This document shows, piece after piece, positions 4,382-21,085 of a DNA stretch of 64,000 bases; the first letter of the stretch is position 1; each line of letters opens with the position of its first letter. A program made the translations under genes and the position numbers. The DNA is from an uncultured Eubacteriales bacterium. GTDB lineage: Bacteria > Bacillota_I > Bacilli_A > RF39 > UBA660. The notes below the pieces were generated by a model, which was given only the letters and a program-made list of their open reading frames with translations, had not been told where the DNA came from and searched no databases. The stretch spans positions 78,181 to 142,180 of the forward strand of contig CAJJKI010000002.1 in NCBI GenBank assembly GCA_905188025.1, given 5' to 3'.

Positions 4382-5200
4382 CTAGGGAGACTCTGTGATA
4401 TTTTGGGATAGGGGTACTATTTTGTAACCTTTACTTAATATATAATCGATGATACTAGATAATTCTTGAGTGTTGTTTATGAGATAGATACTACCATTAG
4501 ATAGATTATTTTTTATTTGATTTAGATTAGTAGGAGTTGTATAGATAGAAGACATTTTATTATTTGAACAGTTGGATAGGGAAGTAGAATTCTTTTCAGT
4601 GAATAGGCAATAGATAGATTTATTATTAGATTTATTATTGATGATATTGTTAGCTATTAAGAGATTATCTTTAGTATATTTACCCATATTACCATAATTA
4701 TATATTTCATTATCTTTGATGGTATCTATTAAACTGATATTATTATTTAGATAGGTGCTATCTATGAAGAAATTTATGGGTACATGATATTTATTTATAG
4801 TAGTTAGAATGTTATCTAGGGTGTTACTGTTATTTAAAATATAGATGAGGGAGATATTTTTTTTATAGGGATTACCACTTATAAGATAGAGATTATAGTT
4901 ATTGTAGATAGAGTTATTTGGATATATGGCTTCATAGATGAGGAGAGAAGCGTCATATGAACTGAGTTTTTTCATGGATTTATAGCTAGCTTCTAGATTA
5001 ACTTCTTTACCAATATTGCCTGGTATGATAGTGTCATCTTTGATAATAGCATCAATAGGGGCGATGTTTAGATCATAAGCTTCATTTTTAATCTTTATCA
5101 TTATTTCATCTTGTTCCATAGAGACATCGATTATTTTTTCAGTATATAGAAAAGTAAAACAAAATAGACAGAATAGACCAATTATTTTAATAACTTTCAT
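4382..5200 (-). CDS. hypothetical N-terminally anchored, Asn-rich protein (possibly a degenerate polysaccharide-deacetylase-like fold)
   Basis: AGGTGA SD precedes the ATG, and a single N-terminal TM segment is present. The segment ISLIYILNNSN...HVPINFFIDS loosely resembles a NodB layout but lacks the catalytic Asp/His residues. Confidence 0.55.
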   Translation of the reverse strand: MKVIKIIGLFCLFCFTFLYTEKIIDVSMEQDEIMIKIKNEAYDLNIAPIDAIIKDDTIIPGNIGKEVNLEASYKSMKKLSSYDASLLIYEAIYPNNSIYNNYNLYLISGNPYKKNISLIYILNNSNTLDNILTTINKYHVPINFFIDSTYLNNNISLIDTIKDNEIYNYGNMGKYTKDNLLIANNIINNKSNNKSIYCLFTEKNSTSLSNCSNNKMSSIYTTPTNLNQIKNNLSNGSIYLINNTQELSSIIDYILSKGYKIVPLSQNITESP

Positions 5201-5290
5201 GTATGATCACCTAGTAAATGATATGAAAATAGTTGTTTACTTATACATTAATTTATGATAAGATTAAGTTAATAAAGTAGGTGATGTGAT

Positions 5291-5830
5291 ATGAATAATA
5301 AAGGATTTACTTTGATTGAATTATTGGCGGTTATTGTGATACTAGTGGGAATATCATTAACTGCAGTTATGGGGATTAGTGCTTCTTTAGAAAGAAGAGA
5401 TGAGAAAGAATGCTATGAACAGGTAGAGTTTGCAGTTAATGCAGCGAAGATATATTTTTCTTTAAATGATAATATAAAAGAAGTAACAGTGGGTACTTTA
5501 AAGAGTGATGGATACTTTGATAGTAAGAAGATTGATAAGCTTAGTATTTATGATAAGATAAGTATTGGTGGGGATAAGTATTTATTTAATGAAAACGAAG
5601 TAACTAATAAGATTAAATGTAGTAATAAAGGGGGAATAATACTAGGAGATTTAAATTATGATGAGAAGATAAATCAAGATGATTTAGATATTTTAGATAA
5701 ATATTTGAGAGGGGAAGGTATGGATGAAGATTTACTTAAATATGCTGATGTTAATAAAGATGGGTGGATTAATCAGAAAGATAGAGAATTAATGCAAAAG
5801 TATATTAATGGAGAGATTGATAAATTTTAG
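5291..5830 (+). CDS. type IV pilin/pseudopilin-like protein with C-terminal dockerin-type repeats
   Basis: Prepilin motif KG|FTLIELLAVIVIL at the N-terminus. The C-terminus has two Ca-binding dockerin-like repeats: DLNYDEKINQDDLDILDKYL and DVNKDGWINQKDRELMQKYI. Confidence 0.75.
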   Translation: MNNKGFTLIELLAVIVILVGISLTAVMGISASLERRDEKECYEQVEFAVNAAKIYFSLNDNIKEVTVGTLKSDGYFDSKKIDKLSIYDKISIGGDKYLFNENEVTNKIKCSNKGGIILGDLNYDEKINQDDLDILDKYLRGEGMDEDLLKYADVNKDGWINQKDRELMQKYINGEIDKF

Positions 5831-5832
5831 TA

Positions 5833-7359
5833 TTAGATAGAATCAATAGTTATTTTAGAAGATATGTTTTTAATAGTAGAGGTAATATGATCTTTATCTT
5901 CTTTGGATAAGAGGGGATTATTATTTAAGAGAGTGAGATAGTCTTTTACTTTAGAGAGAAGGCTATCTTCTTTTTTAGATAGATATAATTCATAGTAGGT
6001 TGTTAATAGAAGGATTTGGGCTTTGTCAAAGGAAGAGATTGATTCTAGTAATTGGATAGATTTTGACAAGTCTTTAGTTATTCCTAGAGAGGCACAGCCA
6101 GGGATATAGAAATTAGTTACTAAGTTTATTATATTCCAGGGATATAGAGTACTTTTAGGAGCAGTAGAACCAATAGTGAAATATTTATATGAGAGAGATA
6201 GATCTTTATTAGTACCTAGACCTTTTAGATAGAAGAGGCCTACTTTATTACAGGCCCAAGATTCTTCCATATTAGCACTAGCTAGGTAACAAGAGAAGGC
6301 TTTTTGATAGTCTTTTTTTTCTTCATATATTTTACCTAGATTATTATAGGCATAGGGATAGTTTCTAGAGATAGCTTTATTAAAGTAAGAGATAGCTTTA
6401 TCTAGATTTATTTCTTTATGGGGATTAGTACCTGATAGATAGCATAATCCGAGGGTATTTAGAGAAGAGACACTATTTAGAGATTCGGCTTTTTTGAGAT
6501 ATGACCAAGCTAGTGATAGGTCATCATTGGATAGAGAACCTATTTTTTTAGTTAGAATCATGTGAGCAAGAATCCAACAGGAAGTTGGATGATTATAATT
6601 AGCTGCTAATTCATGATAAGAATAAGCTAGTTCATAGTTAGGAGTACCTGAAATATAGCCCATGTATTCTAGATTACCTAGTTCATTTAAGGCATAAGGA
6701 TTATTCTTTGAAGCAAGGCTTTTTAATGATGGGATGAGACTGATGCCTTCAGAGAATTTTAATTCAAGATATTCTTTAAGGCTGTCTACAGATATATTAG
6801 TATTTCTTAATATTTCATCAATAGTAGTGTTTACTAAGTCTTTATCATAGATAGGTTGCTTCTTTTCTAGAATAGTAAAGAATAATACTTGACAGATACA
6901 TTCATAATAATTTTCTTCTTTTAAGAGATGGAGATAATTATTTTTGAAATTATATGGAACATATAGATCGTTTTTAATATATGGATGAATAGAGTAAGCT
7001 AGAGTTTTTAGACGAGAAGAAGTATTTAGGGAAGAGATGCTATCATATGAGGTTATTTGACCAGTCATTATAGATAAAAGATTATTAATGATAGGGATTA
7101 AGACTGATTTATCTTTAGACCATTTTTTTTGATAGATAAGATATATTTGTTTATAATTATTACCAATAGCACGATATCCAGTACAATAATTACCTACTGT
7201 AGTATCAGAAATATTTTCAATATTGAAGAGAATACAAAATATTTCAGTTTGAATAGCGGAAGACTTATTGATAGAGTTCTTTTTTATTTCATTAAAGAGA
7301 TTTCCTAAAGATAAATGATTAGGATTATTATTTAATTTTAGATATGTCACAAGTATCAC
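5833..7359 (-). CDS. Sel1/TPR-like repeat protein
   Basis: Repeated A..LG..Y..G.G...D...A..YF modules, e.g. NTLGLCYLSG...DKAISYFNKA and NKVGLFYLKGLGTNKDLSLSYKYF. GTG start. Confidence 0.7.
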   Translation of the reverse strand: MILVTYLKLNNNPNHLSLGNLFNEIKKNSINKSSAIQTEIFCILFNIENISDTTVGNYCTGYRAIGNNYKQIYLIYQKKWSKDKSVLIPIINNLLSIMTGQITSYDSISSLNTSSRLKTLAYSIHPYIKNDLYVPYNFKNNYLHLLKEENYYECICQVLFFTILEKKQPIYDKDLVNTTIDEILRNTNISVDSLKEYLELKFSEGISLIPSLKSLASKNNPYALNELGNLEYMGYISGTPNYELAYSYHELAANYNHPTSCWILAHMILTKKIGSLSNDDLSLAWSYLKKAESLNSVSSLNTLGLCYLSGTNPHKEINLDKAISYFNKAISRNYPYAYNNLGKIYEEKKDYQKAFSCYLASANMEESWACNKVGLFYLKGLGTNKDLSLSYKYFTIGSTAPKSTLYPWNIINLVTNFYIPGCASLGITKDLSKSIQLLESISSFDKAQILLLTTYYELYLSKKEDSLLSKVKDYLTLLNNNPLLSKEDKDHITSTIKNISSKITIDSI

Positions 7360-7476
7360 CTATCTATATAATAGCATATTTTGTGGATATTGTGAAGAAT
7401 TATTTTTGATGATGTGGACTATAGTAAGTTATCTTATGGATATGAAAGCGATATACTGTTAATAGGAGGAGAAAAA

Positions 7477-8712
7477 ATGAAAGTGCTTAAGAATTATAAA
7501 TCAATGATTATATTGATAGGTGCAATAATATTAGGGGGACTTGTTGGTTTATTATGGGGAGAGGGAGCTCAGGTATTGAGTCCTTTTGGAGATTTATTTT
7601 TAAATATGCTATTAATAATAGTAGTACCTTTGATATTTTTAACTATTACGGGATCTATATATAAGATGAAGCAACCTAAGAGGGTTGGAAAGATATTGGG
7701 AACAACGTTTTTAATATTTTTAATAACTTCAGTAGTAGCAGTATTTATAGGAATAGGTGCTACTTATAGTATGAGATTAGTTGATCCGGATGATGGTGAG
7801 AGAATTAAAGAGGGACTGGTTATTCAGGGAGAAGAGGAAGAAGTATCTACGGAGTTAAATATTTTAGATAAGACAGTAGAAGCAATATCAGTAAACGACT
7901 TTGTTAAATTATTATCTAGAGATAATATGATTGCTTTAATAGTGGTAGCAATACTTACAGGAATAGCAATGAGTATGAGTCCTGATAAGGCAAAGCCAAT
8001 GTATGAATTTATTGAGTCTGCTACGGAAGTGCTTATGAATTTTATTAAGATAGTTATGTATTATGCTCCAATTGGATTAGGTTGTTATTTTGCTGCTTTA
8101 GTAGGAACTTTTGGTAGTCAAATAGCAGTAGGATACTTTAAGACATTTATTATTTATTTAGTGGCTTCAGTAGTATTCTATTTTGTAGTATATTCAATAT
8201 ATGCTTATATTAGTGGAGGAAAGAAAGGCTTTAAGGCTTTTTGGAAGAATATAATTCCTTCTACGGTGACTTCACTTGCTACTTGTTCATCAGCAGCTTC
8301 AATGCCAGTAAATATAGAGTGTACTAAAAAGATGGGAGTACCTGATGATATAGCTGAGACTACAGTATCTTTAGGAACTAGCTTTCATAAAGATGGATCA
8401 GTTATGGGTAGTGTATTTAAGATAATGTTTTTAGTATATTTATTTAATGGTTTTGGAGATATATCAATACTAAAGATAATGGGAATAGCTTTAGTGGCTA
8501 CATTACTTGTAACAGCGGTACCAATAGGTGGAGGTACAATATCAGAGATGCTTATTATTACAATGCTTGGTTATCCAGTAGCAGCTTTACCGATACTAAC
8601 AATAATTGCTACAATAATAGATCCGCCAGCTACAGTGCTTAATGTAGTAGGAGATAGTGCTTCAGCAATGTTAACTAGTAGAATAGTTGATGGAAAAAAA
8701 TGGATTAAATAA
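7477..8712 (+). CDS. dicarboxylate/amino acid:cation symporter (DAACS family)
   Basis: Multi-TM protein with ATCSSAASMPV and DPPATVLNVVGDSASAM motifs typical of GltP/SstT-type carriers. GGAGGAG SD precedes the ATG at 7477. Confidence 0.9.
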   Translation: MKVLKNYKSMIILIGAIILGGLVGLLWGEGAQVLSPFGDLFLNMLLIIVVPLIFLTITGSIYKMKQPKRVGKILGTTFLIFLITSVVAVFIGIGATYSMRLVDPDDGERIKEGLVIQGEEEEVSTELNILDKTVEAISVNDFVKLLSRDNMIALIVVAILTGIAMSMSPDKAKPMYEFIESATEVLMNFIKIVMYYAPIGLGCYFAALVGTFGSQIAVGYFKTFIIYLVASVVFYFVVYSIYAYISGGKKGFKAFWKNIIPSTVTSLATCSSAASMPVNIECTKKMGVPDDIAETTVSLGTSFHKDGSVMGSVFKIMFLVYLFNGFGDISILKIMGIALVATLLVTAVPIGGGTISEMLIITMLGYPVAALPILTIIATIIDPPATVLNVVGDSASAMLTSRIVDGKKWIK

Positions 8713-8724
8713 AAAGAAAAAAGC

Positions 8725-9096
8725 TCATTTCTTAGAGGAATGAGCTTTGTAGATCATGATATGATTTATGATAGTAGCTATGTTGTGATCGTTTATTGTA
8801 ATATAGTTATCTTTTGATACATATATCTTTAATTCGCTACCAAGATTTTTTTCTACTTTAGTGATATCACTTAGATATGTTTTAAAGATTACTTCTTTTT
8901 TCTTTATGGGAGATATTCTTCCAGAACATCTTAAGTCTTCTTCTGAGTTGTTGATATTGCTAGGGTTACTTAATACAAATAGACGGATATTAGTTAAAAT
9001 GATAGTAAAAGTACTGTAATTATCTTTTTCATACATTTTAACGTCATCTATTATGTGTATTATTTCTTCGTTTTCTAATAAGTGAATATCGTACAT
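8725..9096 (-). CDS. hypothetical protein (possibly a bacterial PH-like domain)
   Basis: 123-codon ORF with its own ATG. No diagnostic motif. Confidence 0.5.
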   Translation of the reverse strand: MYDIHLLENEEIIHIIDDVKMYEKDNYSTFTIILTNIRLFVLSNPSNINNSEEDLRCSGRISPIKKKEVIFKTYLSDITKVEKNLGSELKIYVSKDNYITINDHNIATIINHIMIYKAHSSKK

Positions 9097-9170
9097 ATAA
9101 GACTCCTTTCAATAGTATTATATCATATTATTTAAATATCTATCAAAAAAACTCACTTAGTGAGTTAATA

Positions 9171-9407
9171 TTATTCTTCTTCGGGAATATCATCAAATAA
9201 TTTCTTAATAGGTATTTCTAAGCCGGATGCAATTCTTTCAACGGCGTCTAAAGAGAAGGTTGATGCCATTGTAAATGACTCAATTTCACGAATATATCCA
9301 TGAGATAAACCAGAAGCATCAGCTAATTCTTGTTGTGTCATTTTCTTTGCTTTACGGTATTTCTTAATATTATATCTAACGGTATCATAAATATTATATC
9401 TATTCAT
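9171..9407 (-). CDS. XRE-family helix-turn-helix transcriptional regulator
   Basis: KKMTQQELADASGLSHGYIREIE is a classic HTH_3 pattern. AAGAGGTGAA SD precedes the ATG at 9407. Confidence 0.85.
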   Translation of the reverse strand: MNRYNIYDTVRYNIKKYRKAKKMTQQELADASGLSHGYIREIESFTMASTFSLDAVERIASGLEIPIKKLFDDIPEEE

Positions 9408-9535
9408 GTATTCACCTCTTGTAAATATTTTCTCATAAATAAAATGAAAAATATGTAGAGGAATTGTATACATATCAAGGGATAAATCGACAATTTTTTT
9501 GCTTTTTTAGGCATATAATTATGATGGTGATTAAA

Positions 9536-10492
9536 ATGAATAAGTTATATATGGGAATAGATATTGGATCTATATCTACTAAAGGAGTTATTATTGATGA
9601 ATATGATAATATTATAGCTAGTTGTTATTTATATACGGAGGGTAATCCGATAAGGGCAGTGAAGATGGTTGTTAAGAAGATGAGGGATGAGATAGATTTA
9701 AATAAGTATCAGGTGGTATCGGTAGGGACGACGGGATCTGCTAGAAAGTTGATTGGTACAATGCTTGGGGCTAGTACAATTAAGAATGAGATAACGGCTC
9801 ATGCAGTGGGAACGATTAGATTGTATCCAAATGTTAGAACAATATTTGAGATAGGAGGGCAAGATTCAAAGATTACACTTGTTAATAACGGGATAGTGTG
9901 TGATTATGCGATGAATACATTATGTGCTGCTGGTACAGGGGCTTTTATATCATCTTTGGCTAAGAGACTGGATGTGAATATTGAAGATGTAGCAAGGGTG
10001 GCTTTTAGTAGTCAAAATAAAGTATCAATAGCTGCTAGGTGTACAGTATTTGCCGAATCTGATTTAATTCATAAAATACAAGCAGGGTATAAAAAAGAAG
10101 ATATAATAGCAGGAGTATGTAGAGCAGTAGCAGTTAACTATATAAATAATGTTGCTAAAGGAAAAAAGATAATGGCTCCGATAGTATTTAATGGAGGAGT
10201 TAGTAAGAATGCAGCAGTAGTTAGAGCATTTGAGGAAATAACTCATGAGAAGATAATAGTTAATAGAAATTCACATTTGATGGGAGCTTTTGGAATAGCT
10301 ATAATGGCTAAAGAAAGTAAAAAAGAAAGTGTATTTAACTTTGATATAGATAACTTAAGAGTAGAGACAAAAATAGTTAATTGTGGAAGATGTGCTAATA
10401 ACTGTGAAATAGTAGCAGTATATAAAAATGATAATTTAATTGATCATTATGGAAATAGATGTGAAAGAGGGAATTTAGTTAAAAATACATAA
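9536..10492 (+). CDS. BadF/BadG/BcrA/BcrD-type ATPase (acyl-CoA dehydratase activase-like) with C-terminal Cys cluster
   Basis: Contains GIDIGSISTKGV, GTTGSAR, EIGGQDSK, CAAGTGAF and RCTVFAESD motifs. C-terminal CGRCANNCE...NRCERG cluster. Confidence 0.8.
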   Translation: MNKLYMGIDIGSISTKGVIIDEYDNIIASCYLYTEGNPIRAVKMVVKKMRDEIDLNKYQVVSVGTTGSARKLIGTMLGASTIKNEITAHAVGTIRLYPNVRTIFEIGGQDSKITLVNNGIVCDYAMNTLCAAGTGAFISSLAKRLDVNIEDVARVAFSSQNKVSIAARCTVFAESDLIHKIQAGYKKEDIIAGVCRAVAVNYINNVAKGKKIMAPIVFNGGVSKNAAVVRAFEEITHEKIIVNRNSHLMGAFGIAIMAKESKKESVFNFDIDNLRVETKIVNCGRCANNCEIVAVYKNDNLIDHYGNRCERGNLVKNT

Positions 10493-10616
10493 AGATATAA
10501 AATAATTAGAATGATCTAGTTATTTTTTCTTTACTTAGATAGATATTTTTTGTAAATAAATGGATTATTATTGTATATAAAGATTTTTTTTAGTATAATT
10601 TTAGTATGAAGAAAGT

Positions 10617-11411
10617 ATGGTGAATATGAAACAGAGAACAATTAGTGCGATCATACTATTAATATTACTTGTAGGTAGTTTAGTTATTAGTAGTAAATTA
10701 TTTGGAATAGTAATGTTATTAGTAGCAGTACTAGGATTTAATGAGTTTTTTGATATAAAATATCATGATAAAGAAAAGAAACTTAAATATATAAAGATAT
10801 TAGGAATAATTAGTTTGATATTGATTACTTTAAATGAAACATTTTATAGTTTAGATTTAAGAACAGTTATCTTATTACCATTAATTATATTAAGTATACC
10901 AATAGTTATATATAATGATAATGAATTATATAGTATTAATGATTGTATGTATGTACTTGGAATAGTATATTTTTTAGGGCTATCTTTTGAGAATATAATA
11001 TATTTAAGAGATACTCAAATGGCTAAATGTATATTTATTTTTATCGTAGCTTTTATTACTGATACATATGCTTATATAGGAGGTAGTTTGGTTGGAAGAC
11101 ATAAACTTACTTCAATATCTCCGAAGAAGACAATAGAGGGTAGTGTTATAGGTACAGTAATGGGAGTACTTATAGGAAGTGTCTACTATTACAATGTAGT
11201 AGGAGGAGTATCAGTACCTATGACAATACTACTATGTTTGATATTAACAATATTATCAGAGATAGGAGATTTAATGTTTAGTAGTATAAAGAGATATTTT
11301 AATAAGAAAGATTATTCAAATTTGATTCCAGGACATGGAGGAGTATTAGATAGATTTGATAGTGTTATATATGTATCACTTGGTTTATCATTAATACTTA
11401 GTATGATGTAA
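10617..11411 (+). CDS. cdsA: phosphatidate cytidylyltransferase
   Basis: Multi-TM protein with PKKTIEGS and SSIKR...KD.S.LIPGHGGVLDRFDS signatures. Confidence 0.9.
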   Translation: MVNMKQRTISAIILLILLVGSLVISSKLFGIVMLLVAVLGFNEFFDIKYHDKEKKLKYIKILGIISLILITLNETFYSLDLRTVILLPLIILSIPIVIYNDNELYSINDCMYVLGIVYFLGLSFENIIYLRDTQMAKCIFIFIVAFITDTYAYIGGSLVGRHKLTSISPKKTIEGSVIGTVMGVLIGSVYYYNVVGGVSVPMTILLCLILTILSEIGDLMFSSIKRYFNKKDYSNLIPGHGGVLDRFDSVIYVSLGLSLILSMM

Positions 11412-11427
11412 GAGAAGGAGGAGGATT

Positions 11428-12471
11428 ATGTTATCACTTTTATGGTTTATTCTTATTTTAGGAGCAATAGTAGCTGTTCATGAATTTGGACATTTTATAT
11501 TTGCTAAGTTATCAAATATTTATGTATATGAATTTTCTATAGGTATGGGAAAGAAAATATTTGGAAAGAAACGTAAGGGAGGAGAAACGGAATTTTGTAT
11601 TAGAGCTGTTCCTTTAGGGGGATATGTAATGATAGCAGGAGAAGACGTTGAAGATGAAAAGATCCCTAAAGATAGACAAATGTGTAATAAGAATTTTATT
11701 AGAAGATTCTTAGTATTATTTGCAGGAGCTTTTAATAATTTTGTATTTGCTTTCTTAATGTTATTTATTAGTGCTTTAATATATGGAGCGGCTTCGACAA
11801 AGCCTTATATTGGAGAAGTAGCTGATGGATATCCTGCTAAAGAAGTAGGATTACAAGCTGGAGATTTAGTATTATCAATAGATAATGAAAAGATACATAA
11901 TTGGGATACAGCTTTAGTTAAATTACAGACTAATAAAGGAGAAACAATTACTTTTGAAGTAGAGAAGACTGATGGAACAATTAAAAAGTATGAAATTACT
12001 CCAGTAAAAGAAACTGATAAAGATGGAAACACTAGTTATAAATTTGGTATAGCTACAAGATATGAAAAAGAATATGGATTTGGTAAATCTTTGAAATATG
12101 CTTGTAATAAATTTATATCATTATTTACTAGTATGTGGGATACATTAAAATATTTATTTACTGGTAAGGTAGGAGTTAATCAATTATCAGGACCAGTAGG
12201 AATATATTCAATAGTAGATTCACAATCTAAACAAGGATTTGAAGCTATATTATATTTAGTAGCATATTTATCAATAAATGTAGGTATAATTAATTTATTA
12301 CCATTCCCAGCATTTGATGGAGGAAGAATATTATTCTTATTTATAGAGAAGATATTTAAAAAGCCTGTATCTAAGAAGACAGAGAATATTATACATACTA
12401 TTGGATTTATGTTAATTATAGGATTACTTATATATGTAACATTTAATGATCTTATTAGATTATTTAGATAA
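11428..12471 (+). CDS. rseP: RIP metalloprotease RseP (site-2 protease, M50 family)
   Basis: HEFGHF zinc motif, a PDZ-like middle region, and NLLPFPAFDGGR. Confidence 0.92.
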   Translation: MLSLLWFILILGAIVAVHEFGHFIFAKLSNIYVYEFSIGMGKKIFGKKRKGGETEFCIRAVPLGGYVMIAGEDVEDEKIPKDRQMCNKNFIRRFLVLFAGAFNNFVFAFLMLFISALIYGAASTKPYIGEVADGYPAKEVGLQAGDLVLSIDNEKIHNWDTALVKLQTNKGETITFEVEKTDGTIKKYEITPVKETDKDGNTSYKFGIATRYEKEYGFGKSLKYACNKFISLFTSMWDTLKYLFTGKVGVNQLSGPVGIYSIVDSQSKQGFEAILYLVAYLSINVGIINLLPFPAFDGGRILFLFIEKIFKKPVSKKTENIIHTIGFMLIIGLLIYVTFNDLIRLFR

Positions 12472-12491
12472 ATATATATTACAAAGACAAT

Positions 12492-12530
12492 AAAGATAAT
12501 ACTTATGGAAGTGTTATCTTTTTCTTTTTT
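12492..12530 (+). terminator. intrinsic terminator after rseP
   Basis: AAAGATAATAC pairs with GTGTTATCTTT (one G-U pair), followed by a T-run. Confidence 0.7.
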
Positions 12531-12597
12531 CTTGTTATAAAAAATAAAAATGGTACTAAAGTATTCTACTTAATTATCATTTTGAAGGTAAAAGTAT

Positions 12598-12993
12598 ATG
12601 GATAATGATAAGAATAAAAAGATAATTTTAGTGTTAGGAATATTAACAGTTATATTTACAATAATTGGTGGATCTTTAGCATACTTTTCGTGGATAAGCA
12701 GTGAATCACAAAAGGCAAATATTACTTTTGCTACAGGAGTAGATTTTCCTGATAGTAAATATTATGACGTTTACAAAGCTGCTAATGGAACCTCAATAAA
12801 CGCATTAACTGCATGCGATGGAGGAATATGTTATGGTTATTACGCGAGCTTTGTCTATACCAACAATCCATGGTTTAATCGTAGCGGTGGCTACAACATT
12901 GGTGCTAATGTGGGTGCCTTCGACTTCGTCAACACCTACGGTAGTGCCAGCCTCAGCAGATTTCGTTCGGTTGTTTCTTTCGTTGGAGCGTAG
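12598..12993 (+). CDS. small secreted or anchored protein with TasA/SipW-type signal-like N-terminus and a GC-rich CLec/FGE-like C-terminal tail
   Basis: The N-terminus ...IIGGSLAYFSW resembles the GGTLAYF signal class. The C-terminus NPWFNRSGGYNIGANVGAFDF...SRFRSVVS resembles the RGG...GFR tail of FGE-sulfatase/C-type-lectin-fold domains. Confidence 0.6.
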   Translation: MDNDKNKKIILVLGILTVIFTIIGGSLAYFSWISSESQKANITFATGVDFPDSKYYDVYKAANGTSINALTACDGGICYGYYASFVYTNNPWFNRSGGYNIGANVGAFDFVNTYGSASLSRFRSVVSFVGA

Positions 12994-13113
12994 TGATTTC
13001 ATATTATATTATGTATATGGAGATTGAGTTAATATTGATAGGGATGATGAGTAGGTAGAGGGAGTTTATCTATGATTTAACTTAATGAAAGGGAATATAA
13101 TTGTAGGGTAAGT

Positions 13114-13155
13114 AAAACCTCATCTTATAGATATGTGATAAGATGAGGTTTTTAG
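13114..13155. terminator. bidirectional intrinsic terminator
   Basis: AAAACCTCATCTTAT (13114-13128) pairs with ATAAGATGAGGTTTT (13138-13152). T/A runs flank both sides. Confidence 0.75.
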
Positions 13156-13167
13156 ATGGATATATTG

Positions 13168-13560
13168 TTATGAGATGAGGATATTTTTGAGAAGATTCTT
13201 TTTTTGATCTTCTTTAGGGAAGGAGATAGTTAAGATACCATTTTGATATAGAGCTTTTATATCTGATTCTCTTTTAATACCTATATAGAAACTACGTTTT
13301 ATTTCACCATATAGTCTTTCTCTTCTAATATATGTATCAGGAGAACTTGAGAGGGTATTTTTATTGGCATATATAGTTAGATAACCGTTATCATAGTTTA
13401 TCTTGATATTTTCTTTTTTTATACCAGGTAAGTCCATTTCTAAGATATAACGATTATCTTTTTCATATATATCTGTTTTCATATATTCTTTTTCTTTAGG
13501 ATAGGGATTATTGAATAAATCAAAATAATCATTTAAGTAATAATTTCTATTATGGTTCAT
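13168..13560 (-). CDS. Hsp20/alpha-crystallin family small heat-shock protein
   Basis: DIYEKDNRYILEMDLPGIKKENIKINYDNGYLTI...RRERLYGE..RSF....I.A.Y.NGILTI..PK matches the ACD pattern. Confidence 0.9.
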   Translation of the reverse strand: MNHNRNYYLNDYFDLFNNPYPKEKEYMKTDIYEKDNRYILEMDLPGIKKENIKINYDNGYLTIYANKNTLSSSPDTYIRRERLYGEIKRSFYIGIKRESDIKALYQNGILTISFPKEDQKKNLLKNILIS

Positions 13561-13684
13561 GTAATCATTCCTTTCAAGTTTATTATGGATAAGTTATATG
13601 AAAATAATACGATAATATAGTGTAAAATAATGATATATTATATATAAATAAAGAGAAATATGATATAATTATATGGGTGGTTAT

Positions 13685-14770
13685 ATGTATAATAGAGCAC
13701 TAGAAGTATTAAATATTTTATGTGATAAGGGTTATATAGCATATATAGTAGGAGGATATCCTAGAGATATGTTATTAGGAATAAAGACTAATGATATAGA
13801 TATTTGTACTAATGCTACTCCTAAGGAGATAATAGAAATATTTGATACGGATAATATTAGTGATACTAATTATGGATCGGTAAGAGTGATATATAAGAAT
13901 TATCACTTTGATGTGACTACTTTTAGGAAAGATATTAAGTATGAAAATAATCGTAGACCTGTAAAGGTTAAATATATTAATGATCTTAAGAAAGATTTAC
14001 TTAGAAGAGATTTTACTATTAATACTATGTGTATTGATAAAGATGGTAATTTGATAGATATGCTTGGTGCTAAGAGTGATATTGATAAGAGAATAATTAA
14101 GACAGTAGGAAATCCAAGATATCGTATTAAAGAAGATAGTTTAAGAATACTTAGAGCAATTCGTTTTGCAGGAGTACTTGATTTTGATATAGATAGTAAG
14201 ACATTTAATTATATAAGAAAATATGGATATTTACTTAAGAATTTATCATATTCTAGGAAGAAGGAAGAACTTAATAAGATATTTTCTTCAGTTAATAAGG
14301 AGAAGGCTAGAAGGTTAATTATAGATAGTGGAATAGATAAATATTTAGATATTAATAATTTAGAAGAAATAGTTCTATGTGATGATATAATTGGTATATG
14401 GAGTCAGTTAGAAGTAGATGATAGTTATCCATTCTCTAAGGTAGAGAAAGAGATGATTAAGAATATTAGAAGAATGAATCAAGAGGATTTTAATGAATAT
14501 ACAGTATATAAATATGGGTTATATGTATCTACTGTAGTAGGAAGTATTAAGGGAATTAGTTATAAGGAGATTAATGATATATATCATAATTTAGTTATTA
14601 CTTCTAGGAAGGATATAGATATTAAGGCTATGGATATAGCTAAGGCTCTTGATAGTAAGCCTGGGAGTTATATTAGTGATATATTTATTGATATTGAGAA
14701 AGAGATAGTAATGAAGAGACTTAAGAATGATAAGAAAGATATTATTAGATATATAAAGAAACATTATTAG
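13685..14770 (+). CDS. cca: CCA-adding tRNA nucleotidyltransferase (poly(A) polymerase family)
   Basis: IVGGYPRDMLLG...NDIDICTNATP, RRDFTIN and RILRAIRFA motifs. Confidence 0.85.
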   Translation: MYNRALEVLNILCDKGYIAYIVGGYPRDMLLGIKTNDIDICTNATPKEIIEIFDTDNISDTNYGSVRVIYKNYHFDVTTFRKDIKYENNRRPVKVKYINDLKKDLLRRDFTINTMCIDKDGNLIDMLGAKSDIDKRIIKTVGNPRYRIKEDSLRILRAIRFAGVLDFDIDSKTFNYIRKYGYLLKNLSYSRKKEELNKIFSSVNKEKARRLIIDSGIDKYLDINNLEEIVLCDDIIGIWSQLEVDDSYPFSKVEKEMIKNIRRMNQEDFNEYTVYKYGLYVSTVVGSIKGISYKEINDIYHNLVITSRKDIDIKAMDIAKALDSKPGSYISDIFIDIEKEIVMKRLKNDKKDIIRYIKKHY

Positions 14771-14778
14771 GAGGTTTT

Positions 14779-15750
14779 ATGGGATTATTTGATAAGATAA
14801 AGAAAGCTTTTAGTGGTAATAAAACACAAGAAGAGGTAGTTAATTATGATAAGGGGTTAGAGAAGAGTAGACGGGAGTTTGTTAGTCAATTAAGTAATTT
14901 ATCTAAGAAGTATAAGAATATTTCAGAAGATTATTTTGAAGAGTTAGAGAATATTTTAATAATGGCTGATATTGGTATTAATACGGTAATGACTTTTGTA
15001 GATAGATTAAAGGATAGGGTTAAGAAAGAGAAGATAACTGATAGTAATATTTTGAAAGAGATTATTGTAGATGAGTTGTTTGTAATGTATGTTGGAAATA
15101 ATATTATTGATAGTAAGATTCATTTTAGTAGTGAAGGACCTACGGTTATTTTGTTTGTGGGAGTTAATGGTGTTGGTAAGACTACGACGATTGGTAAGAT
15201 AGGGGCAATGTATAAGAATAAGGGTAAGAAAGTGATGATGGTAGCAGGAGATACTTTTAGAGCTGGTGCTAGGGAACAACTAGAACTATGGGGAGAGAAA
15301 ACTGGTATTAGAGTTATTAGTAATGCTTCAAGTGATCCTGCAGCAGTTATGTATGATGCACTAGAGATAGCTAAGAAAGAAGAATATGATTTAGTACTTA
15401 TTGATACAGCTGGTAGACTACAAAATAAGAGTAATTTGATGGATGAACTGGCGAAGATTAATAGAGTAGTTAAAAAAATTATTCCTGAAGCTCCACATGA
15501 GACATTATTAGTGATAGATGCTACTACGGGACAAAATGGTATTAGTCAAGCTAAAGCTTTTAAAGAGATAACTAATATAACAGGAATAGTACTTACTAAA
15601 TTAGATGGTACTGCTAAAGGGGGAATAGTATTAGCTATTAAAGAAGAAGTAAATATTCCAGTTAAATATGTAGGACTAGGTGAAGGAGCAAACCAAATAG
15701 AAGCTTTTGATATAGAGAAATATATATATGGATTATTTAAAGATTTATAG
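14779..15750 (+). CDS. ftsY: signal recognition particle receptor FtsY
   Basis: GVNGVGKTTTIGK, DTAGR and TKLDGTAKGG motifs. Confidence 0.95.
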   Translation: MGLFDKIKKAFSGNKTQEEVVNYDKGLEKSRREFVSQLSNLSKKYKNISEDYFEELENILIMADIGINTVMTFVDRLKDRVKKEKITDSNILKEIIVDELFVMYVGNNIIDSKIHFSSEGPTVILFVGVNGVGKTTTIGKIGAMYKNKGKKVMMVAGDTFRAGAREQLELWGEKTGIRVISNASSDPAAVMYDALEIAKKEEYDLVLIDTAGRLQNKSNLMDELAKINRVVKKIIPEAPHETLLVIDATTGQNGISQAKAFKEITNITGIVLTKLDGTAKGGIVLAIKEEVNIPVKYVGLGEGANQIEAFDIEKYIYGLFKDL

Positions 15751-15766
15751 AGAGGAATAAAAGGAT

Positions 15767-16012
15767 ATGGATAAGAAAAAGATAAAAATATTTATGATAA
15801 TGTCTTTATTAGGAGCATTATTATTACTTGGTCTTGTGTTTGTTAATACAGCTTTTCTATCAGCATTTATGTTATGGCTAGCATTATTTATATTTAGTAT
15901 TTGTTATTATATAAAAGATGATGAGAAGTATCTTTTATTATATGGATTATTTCTTATTGGAGTATTACTAGTAATAGGAGCAGTAATATATATGGTTATG
16001 AGGGTTAGATAA
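15767..16012 (+). CDS. small hypothetical membrane protein
   Basis: 81 codons, three hydrophobic segments, AGAGGA SD. Confidence 0.5.
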   Translation: MDKKKIKIFMIMSLLGALLLLGLVFVNTAFLSAFMLWLALFIFSICYYIKDDEKYLLLYGLFLIGVLLVIGAVIYMVMRVR

Positions 16013-16305
16013 TGGAAGAACAAGAATTACTTATAATGTTATATGACTATTATGGAGAGTTATTTAATGAACAACAAAGAGAATATTTTGAAAGATATTA
16101 TTTTGATAATTTATCATTAGCAGAGATAGCAGAGAATACTGATAAGAGTAGGAATGCTATTCATAAAGGAATAAAAGCAGTATGTAGTAAATTATATGAA
16201 TATGAAAAGATACTAGGAATGTATGAGAAGAGTAAGAAGATTAGAGAGATAATTAAAGAAGTTGATGATGAGAAGATAAAACATGAATTGGAGGAGTTAT
16301 TATGA
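16012..16305 (+). CDS. ylxM: YlxM-like putative DNA-binding protein (UPF0122)
   Basis: LYDYYGELFNEQQREYFERYYFDNLSLAEIAE...SRNAIHKGIK matches the family normally found between ftsY and ffh. Confidence 0.85.
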   Translation: MEEQELLIMLYDYYGELFNEQQREYFERYYFDNLSLAEIAENTDKSRNAIHKGIKAVCSKLYEYEKILGMYEKSKKIREIIKEVDDEKIKHELEELL

Positions 16306-16469
16306 AAAATAAATTACCTGTATTAATAGAAGATAATGAATTACCTAGAAATAATTTAGATAATAATACAAGAAATAATAATTCTTTAGGATATGTAAGT
16401 GTTTTATATATAATTTCAATACTAGTGACTAGTTTTAGTGTTGCAGTAGTAATGGTATTAGGAAAGTAG
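16302..16469 (+). CDS. small hypothetical membrane protein (55 aa, not in the ORF track)
   Basis: ATGA overlap with the ylxM stop, GGAGGAG SD upstream, C-terminal TM segment VSVLYIISILVTSFSVAVVMVL. Confidence 0.4.
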   Translation: MKNKLPVLIEDNELPRNNLDNNTRNNNSLGYVSVLYIISILVTSFSVAVVMVLGK

Positions 16470-16477
16470 ATGGTATT

Positions 16478-17398
16478 ATGAATAATGAGAGTATATTAGA
16501 GAAATATGGAGAGAATTTAACAGAAGTTAAATATTTAGTAAATCCAGCAGTAGCAAGAGATAAAGAACTTAAGGAATTAGTAATGGTTTTACTTACTCCA
16601 GAGAAGTCAGCTTGTTTAGTAGGTAAGCCTGGTATTGGTAAGACTGCTATAGTAGAAGGACTTGCTTATAGGATTCAAATGGGAGATATGCCAAATGCTT
16701 TAAAGGGATATTCAGTATATAAGATTAGTACTCCGTCATTAGTAGGTAGTACTACTGGTGAAAATAGAGTAATGGAATTAATGAAAGAATTACAAACTAA
16801 AGATAAGATTATTATTTTTATAGATGAGATTCATATGCTTATGGGAGGTAGTAATCAAGGACCAATGGACTTGGCTAATATGTTTAAAGAAGGATTAGGT
16901 AGAGGTACAGTTAAGTTAATTGGTGCTACGACGGTAGATGAATATGAAAGATATATTCTTCGTGATAAGGCTTTTGTTAGAAGATTTGAAAGAATAGATA
17001 TATCAGAACCTACTCAAGAAATGTGTGTTCAAATTCTTATGAGAACGATACCAAAGATTGAGATTCAAACAGGGGTTAAATTTAATTATACGGATTTTAT
17101 AAAAGAGAATGTATGTAAATTTATAGTTAATATGACTAGTGAATATAAGAGAGTATATGAAATATCTAGTAGATATCCTGATATAGCTTTAACAGTACTT
17201 AGACAATGTTTTTCAGCAGCTTTATTTGATAATAGTAATGAAGTAAAGTTTAGACATATATATGAAGCAGTTAAGTCTACTAAGGCAGTATATCCGGACG
17301 TAATTAGAAAAGAGTTAATAGTATTTAAGGATGCATTTAAAGATGAACTTACTAGTGAAGGGGTAGAGGTAATAATACCGGAAGAGACTTCAAGATAG
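16478..17398 (+). CDS. stand-alone Clp/Hsp100-type AAA+ D1 module (no N-domain, M-domain or D2)
   Basis: GKPGIGKTAIVEGLAYRI, IIFIDEIHMLMG, LIGATTVDEYERYILRDKAFVRRFERIDISEP. This is the ClpA/B/C D1 signature in a protein of only 306 aa. Confidence 0.75.
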   Translation: MNNESILEKYGENLTEVKYLVNPAVARDKELKELVMVLLTPEKSACLVGKPGIGKTAIVEGLAYRIQMGDMPNALKGYSVYKISTPSLVGSTTGENRVMELMKELQTKDKIIIFIDEIHMLMGGSNQGPMDLANMFKEGLGRGTVKLIGATTVDEYERYILRDKAFVRRFERIDISEPTQEMCVQILMRTIPKIEIQTGVKFNYTDFIKENVCKFIVNMTSEYKRVYEISSRYPDIALTVLRQCFSAALFDNSNEVKFRHIYEAVKSTKAVYPDVIRKELIVFKDAFKDELTSEGVEVIIPEETSR

Positions 17399-17448
17399 TA
17401 ATAATAATAAATGAGATGAATGATAATACAATTAAATAGGAGGTAGAA

Positions 17449-18921
17449 ATGAAGTTAGATAGTTTATTTGAAAATATTCCTAATGAAGTTTTAAAGGGAA
17501 GTATGGATACGGAGATATTAGATATTGCATATGATTCAAGGCAAGTGAAAGATAATTATTTATTTGTAGCAATAGTAGGAAATGATCAAGATGGTCATGA
17601 TTATATTGAATCTGCAATAGATAATGGGGCTACAGCAGTTTTAGTATCTAAAGATATTGAAGTATCTAGGGATGTAACAGTTATTAAAGTAAAAGATACA
17701 AGAAGTATTTTATCAAAGTTATCAATGAGATTATTTAAGTTTCCACAAAATAAGATGAAAACAATAGCTATAACTGGTACTAAGGGAAAGACTACAGTTA
17801 GTTTTATGATCAAGAAAATAATTGAAATGTCAGGAAAGAAATGTGGTCTTATAGGTACTACAGGAGTATATATTGGGAAGAAGTATTATCCTATTAAGAA
17901 TACTACTCCAGAATCTTATGATACTTTAAAATATATGAATGAGATGGTTCATGATAAGATAGAATATATGGTAATGGAAGTATCTAGTCAAGCTCTTAAA
18001 TATGATAGAGTAAATGATATTGTTTTTGATTTTGGTGTATTTACTAATTTAACACAAGATCATATAGGCCCAGGAGAGCACTCTAGTATGGATGATTATA
18101 TAGATAGTAAAGGGAAACTATTTAGGCAATGTAATCATGGAGTTCTTAATATAGATGATGATCACTTTTATGATATGATTCAAAGAGGAGATAGCTCTAT
18201 TAATACATATGGATATAATGAAAAGGCTGATTTAAGAGCAGTTAAGTTAGATTTAGTGAGAGATGGTCATTTTGTAGGTATTAAGTTAGAGACAGCAGGA
18301 GTAATTAATGATACTTTTATGATTAGTAGTCCTGGAGAATTTTCTTCTTATAATGCAATGGCTGCTATACTTACATGTCATATGTTAGGGATAGATACTG
18401 ATTGTATCAAAGAAGCTCTTAGTAACTTTTCAGTTAAAGGAAGAGTAGAACCAGTATGGGTATCAGATGATTTTACTTTATTAATAGATTATGCTCATAA
18501 TGGAGTTAGTACTAAAAGTATTCTTAGTACTATTAGAAAATATGATCCAGGAAGAATAGTAACTATTTTTGGATGTGGTGGTAATAGAAGTAAAGATCGA
18601 AGATATGAAATGGGAGAAATAGCTTCTAAGTATTCAGATTTTTGTATAATTACTGAAGATAATAATCGTTATGAAGAATTTGATGATATAGCTAAAGATA
18701 TTATGAAGAATTTTGATAAGAAATGTGATCATGTTATTATTCCTGATAGAAAAGAAGCTATTAAGTATGCAATAGAGAATGGTAAAAAGGGAGATATTAT
18801 TATGCTTATTGGAAAGGGACATGAAGATTATAAAGAAATTAAAGGAGTAAGATATCCTTTTGATGAGCGTGTAGTAATTAAAGAAATATTAGAAGAACTT
18901 GGTAGAAAGAAAAGTAATTAG
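17449..18921 (+). CDS. murE: UDP-N-acetylmuramoyl-L-alanyl-D-glutamate ligase MurE (amino-acid specificity not resolved)
   Basis: GTKGKTT P-loop, Mur ligase central and C-terminal domain pattern, EDNNRYE in place of the DNPR motif. Confidence 0.92.
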   Translation: MKLDSLFENIPNEVLKGSMDTEILDIAYDSRQVKDNYLFVAIVGNDQDGHDYIESAIDNGATAVLVSKDIEVSRDVTVIKVKDTRSILSKLSMRLFKFPQNKMKTIAITGTKGKTTVSFMIKKIIEMSGKKCGLIGTTGVYIGKKYYPIKNTTPESYDTLKYMNEMVHDKIEYMVMEVSSQALKYDRVNDIVFDFGVFTNLTQDHIGPGEHSSMDDYIDSKGKLFRQCNHGVLNIDDDHFYDMIQRGDSSINTYGYNEKADLRAVKLDLVRDGHFVGIKLETAGVINDTFMISSPGEFSSYNAMAAILTCHMLGIDTDCIKEALSNFSVKGRVEPVWVSDDFTLLIDYAHNGVSTKSILSTIRKYDPGRIVTIFGCGGNRSKDRRYEMGEIASKYSDFCIITEDNNRYEEFDDIAKDIMKNFDKKCDHVIIPDRKEAIKYAIENGKKGDIIMLIGKGHEDYKEIKGVRYPFDERVVIKEILEELGRKKSN

Positions 18922-18929
18922 ATATAAAT

Positions 18930-18962
18930 AAACTCTTCACAAAAATAGTGAGGAGTTTTATT
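18930..18962 (+). terminator. probable intrinsic terminator after murE
   Basis: AAACTCTTCAC pairs with GTGAGGAGTTT (one wobble), followed by TTTTA. Confidence 0.55.
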
Positions 18963-19076
18963 AAGTGATAGATAGTTAGATTATTATAATAAATATTTAT
19001 TTAAGTGATGGACTAAATTGTAATGATTTGATAAAATATTATTATAATAAGTGGATTATGATAAGTGGTGATATAA

Positions 19077-21023
19077 ATGTATTTTAATAATAAAGGTAAT
19101 ACTAATATTGATAATGAATTTAATGAAAAAAAATTTAAATTATTTCGCTTTAATTTTAGTAGTAAGAATATTTTGTTAATAGTAGTTGGAATAATTCTCT
19201 TGATATTTGGAATAGTATTTTTTGTTAGACTAGGTAGTAAGAATAGAGTTACTTATTATTTAGAGCTTAATGGAGAAGAATTAGTTACTATTTATAAGGG
19301 TAATGAATATATAGAACCTGGATATATTGGAAGAGATAGTAAGGGAAATGATCTAACTCAAGAAGTAATGATAGATAGTAATGTAGACACTAGTAATATT
19401 GGAGATTATCAGATAGTATATACTTTACATGATAAGTCTTTAAAGAGATATATAACAGTTACTGATAAGCCAGTAGGGGCTACTTATATATATTTAAAGG
19501 GAGATAATACGATATATCTTAATATAGGTGAAGAATATAAGGAACCTGGATATTTAGTAATAGATTCTATTGATAGTAGTCTTACGGATAAAGTAGTAGT
19601 TTATAATAAGATAGATACTAGTAAGAAGGGAACTTATCAGGTAGTATATACAGTAACTAATTCTACAGGAGTTACTACTAGTGCTAAGAGAACAGTTATT
19701 GTAATGGATGGAAATATATCACTGTCTTTAGATAATGATGGGTATACTAATAAAGAGGTTGAAATAAATATCTATATTATGGATAATTATTTTGATTATC
19801 TTTTGTTACCTGATGGTAATAAAATAAAAGATAAGAGTTATACATATAAAGTTAGTGAGAATGGAGAATATAAGTTTATTAGTTATAATAAGACTGGTAA
19901 GGGGACAGAGTCTAGTATAACTGTATCTAATATTGATAGAGAAGGGCCAACTGGTACATGTAGTGGAAGTTATGGAGATGGAAAAAGTAATATTATCGTA
20001 AATGCACAGGATAAGGCTGGTATAGGGAAGTACTCTATTAATAGGAATAGTTATAGTAGTAATAATATTACAGTTAATAAAGAATATAGTAAGGTAACAG
20101 TAACGGTATATGATAAGTTAGGTAATAGTAGGGATATAACATGTAATTTGAGTAAGAAGAGTACACCAGTACCATCTAGTTCTAGTAGTAGTGTTAATCC
20201 TCCGATAACTCCAGGTAGTAATAAGAATGTTAAATATAATGTAACTAGTGACACAATTAATGTATGGATAGAAGCAGTATCTAATTATTATGTATCACAT
20301 ATTTGGGTAAAGGATGCTTATAATCAAATGAAGACAGCAGTACCTAATAATTTTGGTAATGAGTTATGGAAGGCATCAGATATACTTAATAATGCTATTA
20401 ATAGTCATGGATACCAAAATAAGATTATAGTAGCAGTTAATGGAAGTGGATTCGTTTTAAAAGATACATATGACGTTGGATATTATTATGCTAATATAGC
20501 TTTTAATATGACTAGTGTTAGTCCAATAGTTATAGTGGAAGGAAAGGTACTTAGGGATATATCTAGTGGTAATATTCCTAGTAGTAAACATATTACTTAT
20601 GGACTTAAGAAAGATGGATATTTAAGCTACTATAAATATGAGAAGGGTACTAATAGTAGTAATAATATTAATACTTCAAAGAAGATTATTAGTGATGGAG
20701 TACTTAATACAATAGCATTTAATCCAGTACTTGTTGATAATGGAAATGTAGCTAGTAGTGATACTTCTCCGAATATAAGACAAGGATTTTGTCAGATAGA
20801 TAAGAATAATTTTATCTTTATTACTAATAATGATGGATCTAGAAGTAATGGATTTAGTTTTAAGAGAATGGGAGAATATATGGTTTCTTTAGGATGCAAG
20901 ATGGGATTTAATCTAGATGGGGGAGGATCTACAACGTTATTATTTAAGGACAAGGATGGTAGTGTTAAGGCTTTAGTAGGTAACTCTAGAAAGATAGCAG
21001 ATATAGTATATTTTCATGAATAA
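19077..21023 (+). CDS. membrane-anchored protein with two Ig-like (DUF5011-type) repeats and a C-terminal phosphodiester glycosidase (DUF2233/NAGPA-like) domain
   Basis: Repeated G.EY.EPGY...D....LT..V......DTS..G.YQ.VYT modules. C-terminal NGSGF...NLDGGGSTTL. Confidence 0.75.
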   Translation: MYFNNKGNTNIDNEFNEKKFKLFRFNFSSKNILLIVVGIILLIFGIVFFVRLGSKNRVTYYLELNGEELVTIYKGNEYIEPGYIGRDSKGNDLTQEVMIDSNVDTSNIGDYQIVYTLHDKSLKRYITVTDKPVGATYIYLKGDNTIYLNIGEEYKEPGYLVIDSIDSSLTDKVVVYNKIDTSKKGTYQVVYTVTNSTGVTTSAKRTVIVMDGNISLSLDNDGYTNKEVEINIYIMDNYFDYLLLPDGNKIKDKSYTYKVSENGEYKFISYNKTGKGTESSITVSNIDREGPTGTCSGSYGDGKSNIIVNAQDKAGIGKYSINRNSYSSNNITVNKEYSKVTVTVYDKLGNSRDITCNLSKKSTPVPSSSSSSVNPPITPGSNKNVKYNVTSDTINVWIEAVSNYYVSHIWVKDAYNQMKTAVPNNFGNELWKASDILNNAINSHGYQNKIIVAVNGSGFVLKDTYDVGYYYANIAFNMTSVSPIVIVEGKVLRDISSGNIPSSKHITYGLKKDGYLSYYKYEKGTNSSNNINTSKKIISDGVLNTIAFNPVLVDNGNVASSDTSPNIRQGFCQIDKNNFIFITNNDGSRSNGFSFKRMGEYMVSLGCKMGFNLDGGGSTTLLFKDKDGSVKALVGNSRKIADIVYFHE

Positions 21024-21026
21024 AAA

Positions 21027-21085
21027 AAAGATTACTCTTGTTAAAATGAACTTTAGGGGGTTCATTTATAGAGTAATCTTTTTAT
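21027..21085. terminator. bidirectional intrinsic terminator
   Basis: AAAGATTACTCT (21027-21038) pairs with AGAGTAATCTTT (21070-21081). There is an inner ATGAAC/GTTCAT pairing and flanking A/T runs. Confidence 0.75.

Follow-up and report, generated by a model that had tools for sequence, protein, structure and literature searches.

Two groups of described DGRs come closest to the locus analyzed here. The first is formed by the MSL-type DGRs ("Architecture D", Wu et al. 2018), which include the Legionella DGR and in which the target gene is followed by the template repeat (TR), the MSL gene, avd and the reverse transcriptase (RT) gene. MSL is a described class of DGR accessory genes, and it always co-occurs with avd (PMC5758913). 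The second is the DGR of Treponema denticola, which acts on TvpA and seven remote targets. It is a cellular, non-phage system, its targets are secreted or surface proteins with a C-terminal variable domain of the FGE-type C-type-lectin (CLec) class, and several remote paralogous targets are scattered over the genome (PMC5758913; PMC6328139).

Here we describe a stretch of DNA of 64 kb, referred to below as the window, which contains a small gene whose 3' end, at 12841-12984, is probably the variable region (VR) of a truncated remote DGR target that has by now become a fossil; this reading is based on comparisons between sequences. The system concerned is of an already known kind, namely cellular DGRs of the MSL type that have FGE/CLec targets and remote paralogs, and our findings leave the knowledge of the DGR mechanism unchanged. 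By analogy, the window target may be closest in its logic to Treponema TvpA and the remote targets of that system. There are differences, however: the Treponema DGR has an HRDC accessory gene, whereas the family studied here has MSL and bAvd; the targets in this family are 550-1250 aa long and have a TasA-like leader; and the window copy is a truncated remnant for which no TR was found. The family shares the order target-TR-MSL-avd-RT with the MSL-type DGRs, but the window has none of these components, and the TR of the recovered cassettes ends differently from the window VR. Likewise, the resemblance to TaqVP (PDB 5VF4), Mtd and TvpA comprises the C-terminal VR, the W..RGG...FR.V framework and the FGE-type CLec class, but the window ORF, for which neither Pfam nor the PDB gave a match and which gives no confident model, corresponds only to the last third of the domain.

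The gene in question, ORF 12598..12993 on the plus strand, encodes 131 aa (the coordinates include the stop codon) and ends in the C-terminal tail quoted in the preliminary description of this DNA. It is located between the genes for RseP (11428-12471) and HSP20 (13168-13560, minus strand), an arrangement that is kept in many gut-metagenome contigs. The preliminary description, made from the letters alone, had called the 3' end a DGR variable region because of its composition, and the figures on which this was based could all be reproduced. Thus, G+C at 12841-12990 amounts to 74/150, or about 49%, against 28.1% for the whole window; C is the third base in 22 of the last 50 codons, compared with 2 of the first 50; and the longest run of NNC codons is 8. 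The segment 12844-12993 has the highest GC content of any 150 nt in the 64 kb (49.3%; mean 28.1%, sd 5.0), which is about 4.2 sd above the mean. C-ending codons make up 5.7% across the window's stop-to-stop ORFs of 150 aa or more, no 50-codon window in these ORFs matches 22/50 (the maximum, 19, is reached in minus-strand ORFs), and the binomial probability of 22/50 is ~7e-15. The GC skew of the plus strand is very strong across the whole window, often 0.3-0.7, and as a result minus-strand genes are far richer in C-ending codons than plus-strand genes. Since this skew favors the minus strand, the NNC enrichment of the plus-strand VR is even more exceptional. Because the GC-rich composition is poor in stop codons, the region is also open in two other frames, 12805..13002 (minus strand) and 12818..13027 (plus strand). 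Both of these frames, considered artefacts in the preliminary description, are present and show no sign of coding, and we regard them as by-products of the composition. A search of Rfam over the whole 64-kb window gave nothing at the gathering threshold, and a scan for promoters and terminators around ORF 12598..12993 gave results at chance level.

The 131-aa protein obtained only noise, and no family match, when compared with Pfam, NCBIfam and the PDB sequences, and 20 relatives were found for it in a search of 5.8 billion proteins. In the closest relatives the first ~77 residues are essentially identical and the last ~50 are wildly variable on a fixed framework, which in the alignment of the 20 relatives reads WY.DYA.FV....PWF.RGG.Y..GA.AGAF.F....G.A.....FRSV.S. 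Scans of species-representative genomes and metagenomes, in which trimmed alignments were used, added 70 further loci, and our comparison set comprises 95 loci. The family is present in multiple copies in MAGs of low-GC gut "uncultured Bacilli/Tenericutes" (Clostridium sp. CAG:914, Ca. Onthousia, UBA5348), with 5-11 paralogous tails per MAG. Normal members, of 550-1250 aa, start with the same leader as the window ORF, continue with a long middle part and end in an FGE-sulfatase-like domain that contains the tail. A profile of 47 such full-length C-terminal domains had a single match among PDB sequences, TaqVP 5VF4 (E=0.0015), a DGR variable protein with the FGE-type C-type-lectin fold (PMC6328139), and PF03781 (FGE-sulfatase) is matched by 24 of the 47 domains. 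The likeness of the tail to FGE-sulfatase/C-type-lectin proteins that had been noticed earlier is therefore found again in the full-length relatives. In viral contigs the family profile detected no relatives and the FRSVVSFVG-class VR 3' end had 0 matches; judged from these searches, the family shows no sign of a phage association.

Several relatives have the target gene next to a cassette. The 667-aa target of L034 precedes a TR, an ORF of 146 aa that resembles MutS domain I, Avd and an RT with the motif YMDD. In L087, L088 and L089 the target is followed by a TR, MSL (PF01624, 119 aa), bAvd (PF22296, 118 aa) and RT (PF00078, 342 aa), and five additional contigs, L091-L095, contain MSL-bAvd-RT; it is to all these contigs that the order target-TR-MSL-avd-RT given above refers, MSL being the 119-aa MutS domain I. 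The MSL-bAvd-RT cassettes of L087/L088 and L091-L095 belong to close relatives, from the same studies or samples. All 15 TR/VR mismatches in the L034 core are at adenines, as are 24 of the 27 TR/VR mismatches of L088, where the remaining 3 are at the edges. Within the family, the GC content is 43-53% for the TRs and 53-57% for the VRs, against 27% for the loci. Because TRs and VRs are GC-rich across the family, the GC-rich, NNC-rich appearance of the window tail is normal for its VRs. By the evidence of these TR/VR pairs, we regard the family as a real DGR target family.

Some of these contigs also show how cassettes and assemblies behave. L091-L095, which are independent Logan contigs, all start at one nucleotide, at the last 5 bases of the TR (CCCCG|AGACTAC), and many target contigs stop in or beside the VR. 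Such a common start is to be expected where assemblies break at a repeat, and systematic breaks at TR/VR repeats hide the linkage between target and cassette. On L032, a 1786-bp scaffold of Clostridium sp. CAG:914, two near-identical TR copies (~790-921 and 1111-1290) lie ~320 nt apart, both downstream of one target.

In the window, the GC-rich, NNC-rich segment 12841..12984 lines up codon for codon with the VRs of the family and with the TR of L088. Repeat and homolog searches agree with the earlier statement that TR and RT are absent from the window: within the 64 kb there is no TR-like repeat of 12841-12984, and no homologs of RT, Avd or MSL were found, including by tblastn with the L034 proteins. 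The ORFs of the window with a YxDD-like motif, considered as RT candidates, correspond to MraY, a UvrD-like helicase and an unassigned ORF of 384 aa without an RT match. The VR ends in an adenine-free stretch (12961..12986, TTTCGTTCGGTTGTTTCTTTCGTTGG) of the FRSVVSFVG class, and it is here that the TR/VR homology of the relatives stops. This end was seen at VR ends only (15 loci) and never in a TR in the 95 loci examined. The recovered TRs finish in ...TCCCCG|AGACTAC, unlike the ...TCYTTCG end of the window VR, and a search for the cognate TR via MSL homologs led to the intact cassettes L087-L095, all with a ...TCCCCG TR end. Since the recovered TR ends differ from that of the window class, the TR serving this class is still missing; the nearest one recovered, that of L088, is 74% identical to the window VR over 100 nt, with many non-adenine mismatches.

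As the cognate TR was not found, we infer that a DGR wrote the tail from its homology and with the help of a heterologous TR, which stands in for the cognate one. With the adenine columns taken from this stand-in, the L088 TR, the differences between the window VR and that of the full-length allele L069 fall in 20 of 39 TR-adenine columns vs 12 of 93 others (p=9e-6), those between L010 and the window VR in 21 of 37 adenine columns vs 15 of 95 others (p=6e-6), and among four FRSVVS-class VRs 35 of 39 adenine columns vary vs 23 of 96 others (p=9e-13). Between lineages, variation is thus concentrated at template adenines, and the flanks are conserved (98.6-98.9% identity, in L083 and L069). The variable-region call made in the preliminary description is borne out by these adenine-biased allele differences and by the alignment of the tail with VRs that lie beside complete cassettes, as in L034 and L087/L088, where adenine-specific TR/VR pairs are accompanied by Avd or bAvd and RT.

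It could be argued that the block has nothing to do with a DGR and is a recent horizontal fragment, or a compositional accident of a tail rich in Gly, Ala and Asn; it is compositionally foreign to a genome of 28% GC, and the window is without TR or RT. However, the 3' ends of full-length genes, both at this locus and in paralogs, are colinear with the block, the relatives have adjacent TRs that differ at adenines only, GC-richness is common to all TRs and VRs of the family, and the flanks are native, with 98.6-98.9% identity across strains. We therefore consider this possibility extremely improbable, and already effectively refuted.

Why the ORF is so short becomes clear from its alleles. Positions 1-9805 of L083 correspond to window positions 2780-12582 at 98.9% identity and are followed, at the end of the contig, by the N-terminus of a full-length target, and positions 1374-11668 of L069 correspond to 12732-22988 at 98.6% and come after the last 556 residues of a full-length target. 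Both contigs come from one metagenome. These flank matches imply that a strain of the same species has a target of ~700 aa in the slot between RseP and HSP20. No allele of this locus with an adjacent cassette was found, and a target in this slot without an adjacent cassette is a remote target. The homology to L083 on the N-terminal side stops at 12723 and that to L069 on the C-terminal side begins at 12732, immediately before the junction at 12733..12747, a 15-nt sequence (ACAGGAGTAGATTTT) that encodes TGVDF. The same 15-mer is present near the N-terminus of the full-length relative L090 ("FATGVDFSCS") and again ~98 codons before the C-terminus in L069, L066 and L067 ("YTGVDFPDSK"). On the basis of homologs, synteny and the full-length allele seen in L083 and L069, ORF 12598..12993 as a whole is interpreted as an internally deleted, direct-repeat deletion allele of a DGR target gene, in which the end of the signal peptide is fused to the last ~85 residues. 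The internal deletion would be roughly 1.7-1.9 kb, so that about four-fifths of the length of the gene is gone and only the last third of the CLec domain is retained. The same junction occurs in the diverged alleles of the window, L010, L011, L012 and L013, and the start codon and upstream region of this short form are conserved.

Upstream of the junction, codons 1-45 (12598..12732) form an N-terminal leader like that of the full-length targets, with a basic N-terminus, a hydrophobic helix and the motif "GGSLAYFS", common to L083, L084, L074 and L086 at 82-97%; the AlphaFold2 (AF2) model of the 131-aa protein has a single helix, of residues 2-36. This leader may resemble a SipW/TasA-type signal peptide. 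An assignment as SipW-type is not claimed for the 131-aa ORF, which had no NCBIfam match of this kind. Downstream of the junction, 12748..12840 corresponds to the retained pre-VR scaffold (PDSKYYDVYK...ACDGGICYGY), whose columns are nearly invariant in the family, and 12832..12840 is the site of a second, in-frame deletion of 33 nt between the imperfect repeats TATGGTTAT and TATGGTGAT. The full-length allele L069 scores 25.4 bits against PF03781 (cutoff 23.3), and the match lies wholly within the part deleted from the window ORF, which explains why the 131-aa ORF matches nothing and looked too short for a CLec fold. That remark of the preliminary description was thus to the point: the PF03781-matching segment is absent because it was deleted. 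The beta1/alpha1/alpha2 elements that the CLec fold requires at its N-terminal side (PMC6328139) also belong to the deleted part, so the window ORF does not hold a complete CLec domain.

Downstream of the gene there is a conserved element of 81 nt (13016..13096, plus strand; GTTAATATTGATAGGG...GAGTTTATCTATGATTTAA...), which at remote loci is found after the stop codon of the target. It is 85% identical to L074 11131-11211, where it is located 3' of a decayed TR/MSL remnant, and partially matches L007 783-842 (~80%), after the target stop. It may mark the outer boundary of a cassette loss, or it may be a common 3' UTR of the target gene family.

From these data, the following history can be proposed. 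As seen in the relatives, a GC-rich TR packed with AAC and AAT codons lies downstream of a target, followed by MSL, bAvd and RT; reverse transcription of the TR misincorporates bases opposite adenines, and the resulting cDNA replaces the homologous 3' end of target genes, giving NNC and NNT codons on the conserved W..RGG..GA.AG.F...FR.V framework of an FGE-type C-type-lectin domain. A remote target of ~700 aa would have been cut to 131 aa by deletion between the two 15-nt direct repeats. The last rewriting of its VR was presumably by a DGR with a TR ending like ...TTYCGTTCGGTTGTTTCC; the cognate TR of 12841-12984 is predicted to be ~135 nt long, to match at the non-adenine positions and to have the end TTYCGTTCGGTTGTTTCY. 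The writing cassette would lie outside the window and may have been lost from the strain. The VR would now be a fossil that is fixed in the lineage and subject to ordinary point mutation, and its decay would be visible in the loss of 33 + 3 nt in the window and of 12 nt in sister alleles, in the breaking of the RGG motif, and in the pseudogene found in some strains.

The present state of the VR supports the last part of this history. A single VR state ("...YTNNPWFNRGG...FDFVNTYGSASLS...") is found in the P0001-P0005 clusters and in L001-L006, L012-L015, L063 and L064, and one variant, P0003, recurs without any difference in 15 contigs, which come from at least 6 samples; turnover of the VR among close strains was not observed. 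Samples that carry the window strain include ERZ27242831 and ERZ28616656. Among six alleles of this lineage the variable columns are not enriched for adenines (7/39 vs 12/96), and synonymous divergence within the lineage reaches 0.10 over codons 1-80. The comparison among strains that the preliminary description suggested shows adenine-biased variation between lineages and a fixed VR within the window lineage. The 33-nt deletion is carried by the window, L001-L006 and L013-L015 but not by L010, L011, L012, L063, L064 and L069. The segment that it removes, GLSEVNKWYGD, contains six residues (L, S, E, W, Y and D) that are invariant in the family. A 12-nt deletion is found in L001, L012, L063 and L064. 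The window lineage also has the framework substitutions RGG->RSG and GCC->ACC and a 3-nt deletion, and in L063 and L064 a GGA->TGA change creates a stop codon just before the VR. The scaffold of the target is thus incomplete (deletions of 1.7-1.9 kb and 33 nt, RGG->RSG, stops in sisters); in the window itself the reading frame remains open. The preliminary description had left a choice between a remote or orphan target and a relic; the fixed VR, the deletions, the stops, the full-length remote allele and the failure to find a cognate TR together best support a relic or orphan, and the window gene is most likely a fossil.

How tails of different status look within one genome can be seen in the MAG CANQIL01, which contributes 11 of the loci L034-L060 and has 11 paralogous CLec tails. 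Two of the 11 match the resident TR: that of the cis target L034 and that of the remote target L047, which differs from the L034 TR at 17 adenines and 3 other positions. These two tails have 56-59% GC and 22-23 NNC codons out of 45, whereas the other nine have 41-51% GC, 3-19 NNC codons and 21-41 non-adenine mismatches, which suggests that many of the tails belong to former or differently templated targets. The window tail is intermediate between the two classes, with 49% GC and 19 NNC codons. Orphan tails appear to be common in the clade.

L047 also bears on the possibility that the 131-aa gene is a live remote target, still diversified in trans by a cassette outside the 64-kb window. Remote targets are established for cellular DGRs (PMC5758913), and L047, with its 17 adenine and 3 other mismatches, is one such match to the L034 TR. 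Close relatives that come from the same studies or samples have intact MSL-bAvd-RT cassettes (L087/L088, L091-L095), the VR still has 49% GC and 19-22 NNC codons, near the values of TR-matched VRs, and the ORF is open. Nevertheless, a single VR state is found in every allele of the lineage, with a variant that is identical in 15 contigs; the changes within the lineage are ordinary non-adenine substitutions and indels; conserved scaffold has been deleted and sister alleles have a stop codon; and none of the 95 loci has a TR with the 3' end of the window VR, the recovered cassettes ending in ...TCCCCG. We therefore judge continued diversification in trans to be very unlikely.

Another question is whether the truncated gene was without function from the start. 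In codons 1-80, the window and L011 differ by 10.5 synonymous and 2.5 non-synonymous changes (pN/pS ~0.06). A value this low suggests that selection maintained the short form for a time and that its function was not lost at once; gene conversion with full-length paralogs as donors could give the same picture. Three unrelated VR states are found on the short form. Either it was functional and still diversified for a time, or gene conversion imported selected sequence. L010, a contig of 636 bp from the QWCB01 metagenome, contains a short-form gene of which the first 261 nt equal L013 except for one base, with a different VR and without the 33-nt deletion; its downstream part resembles that of L074 and L088, and the contig breaks off 22 nt into a TR. 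If L010 is not chimeric, short forms can be live cis-targets. We do not rely on this 636-bp contig as proof of a cis cassette beside a short form, because ~110 nt are common to the short form and the full-length paralogs and a chimeric assembly is therefore possible.

These observations raise the possibility that the signal peptide plus the ~85-97 residues up to and including the VR form a functional secreted protein that is under selection, which may be a minimal variable protein. This would be in line with the junction shared by the diverged alleles of the window, L010, L011, L012 and L013, with their pN/pS of ~0.06 over codons 1-80, with the three unrelated VR states among them, and with the conserved start codon and upstream region. 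On the other hand, both the N-terminal beta1/alpha1/alpha2 elements of the CLec fold (PMC6328139) and the PF03781-matching segment lie in the deleted part, AlphaFold2 gives no confident fold (pLDDT 39 for the window protein and 36 for P0018, of 216 aa), the window sub-lineage has lost 11 more residues, six of them family-invariant, some strains have a stop codon, and gene conversion from full-length paralogs that have both halves can yield a low pN/pS. We consider a selected mini-protein unlikely, and it seems to us quite unlikely, though short of the doubt that attaches to diversification in trans, that the 131-143-aa short form is a "mini" variable protein that was maintained by purifying selection and was rewritten by a DGR after its truncation, a reading to which the three unrelated VR states on one deletion junction, and the position of one of them (L010) just upstream of a TR, would point. 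If true, it would be the smallest DGR-diversified scaffold known, and the VR-bearing sub-structure would be functional without the rest of the lectin fold.

If, as we prefer, the window gene is a fossil, the locus would illustrate how a DGR target dies: a repeat-mediated internal deletion would be followed by loss of turnover, by small in-frame deletions and, in some strains, by stops. It would also mean that a DGR leaves a compositional imprint, a 3' tail rich in GC and packed with NNC codons within an AT-rich genome, that is recognizable from raw sequence without the retroelement and outlives the activity that wrote it. The family could serve as a natural series in which declining GC and NNC content is used to date when DGR activity was lost. 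More generally, genomes of low-GC gut Bacilli have 5-11 paralogous CLec tails, some of which match an extant TR, and their cassettes are polymorphic or decayed.

Examples of such cassettes were found at other loci. L009 and L087 appear to represent the same chromosomal neighborhood (downstream genes of 214 aa, ~320 aa and 92 aa, and YtxH). The block TR-MSL-bAvd-RT-PDDEXK_2 is present in L087 and absent in L009, and the cassette thus appears to be polymorphic between strains. In L074, a decayed cassette (10618-10700 and 10902-11147) adjoins a full-length target of 691 aa: ~85 nt of its TR remain after an internal deletion, the MSL gene has been shortened to 81-90 aa, and Avd and RT are missing. 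At the S20/GPR/SpoIIP locus, L007 has a target with a normal VR, and in another strain (L090, 213-1082) a 149-aa N-terminal target fragment is followed by a DUF285 fragment; the latter is a second case of decay of a target gene.

Two further genes of the window may be mentioned. At 62454-64000 (plus strand), and running off the end of the window, lies another paralog of the target family, a distant one, which is 29% identical to the 686-aa L074 target, colinear with it (E=1e-17), and shares the motifs HPAF..G.W..K.E, EWG..YLSHSKYG and YDMSGGA.EYV; its visible part has 26% GC (33% in the last 150 nt), no VR signature and no match in Pfam. At 5285-5827 (plus strand), a protein of 181 aa has a prepilin-type methylation motif (PF07963) at its N-terminus and a type I dockerin (PF00404) at its C-terminus, a pairing that is unusual.
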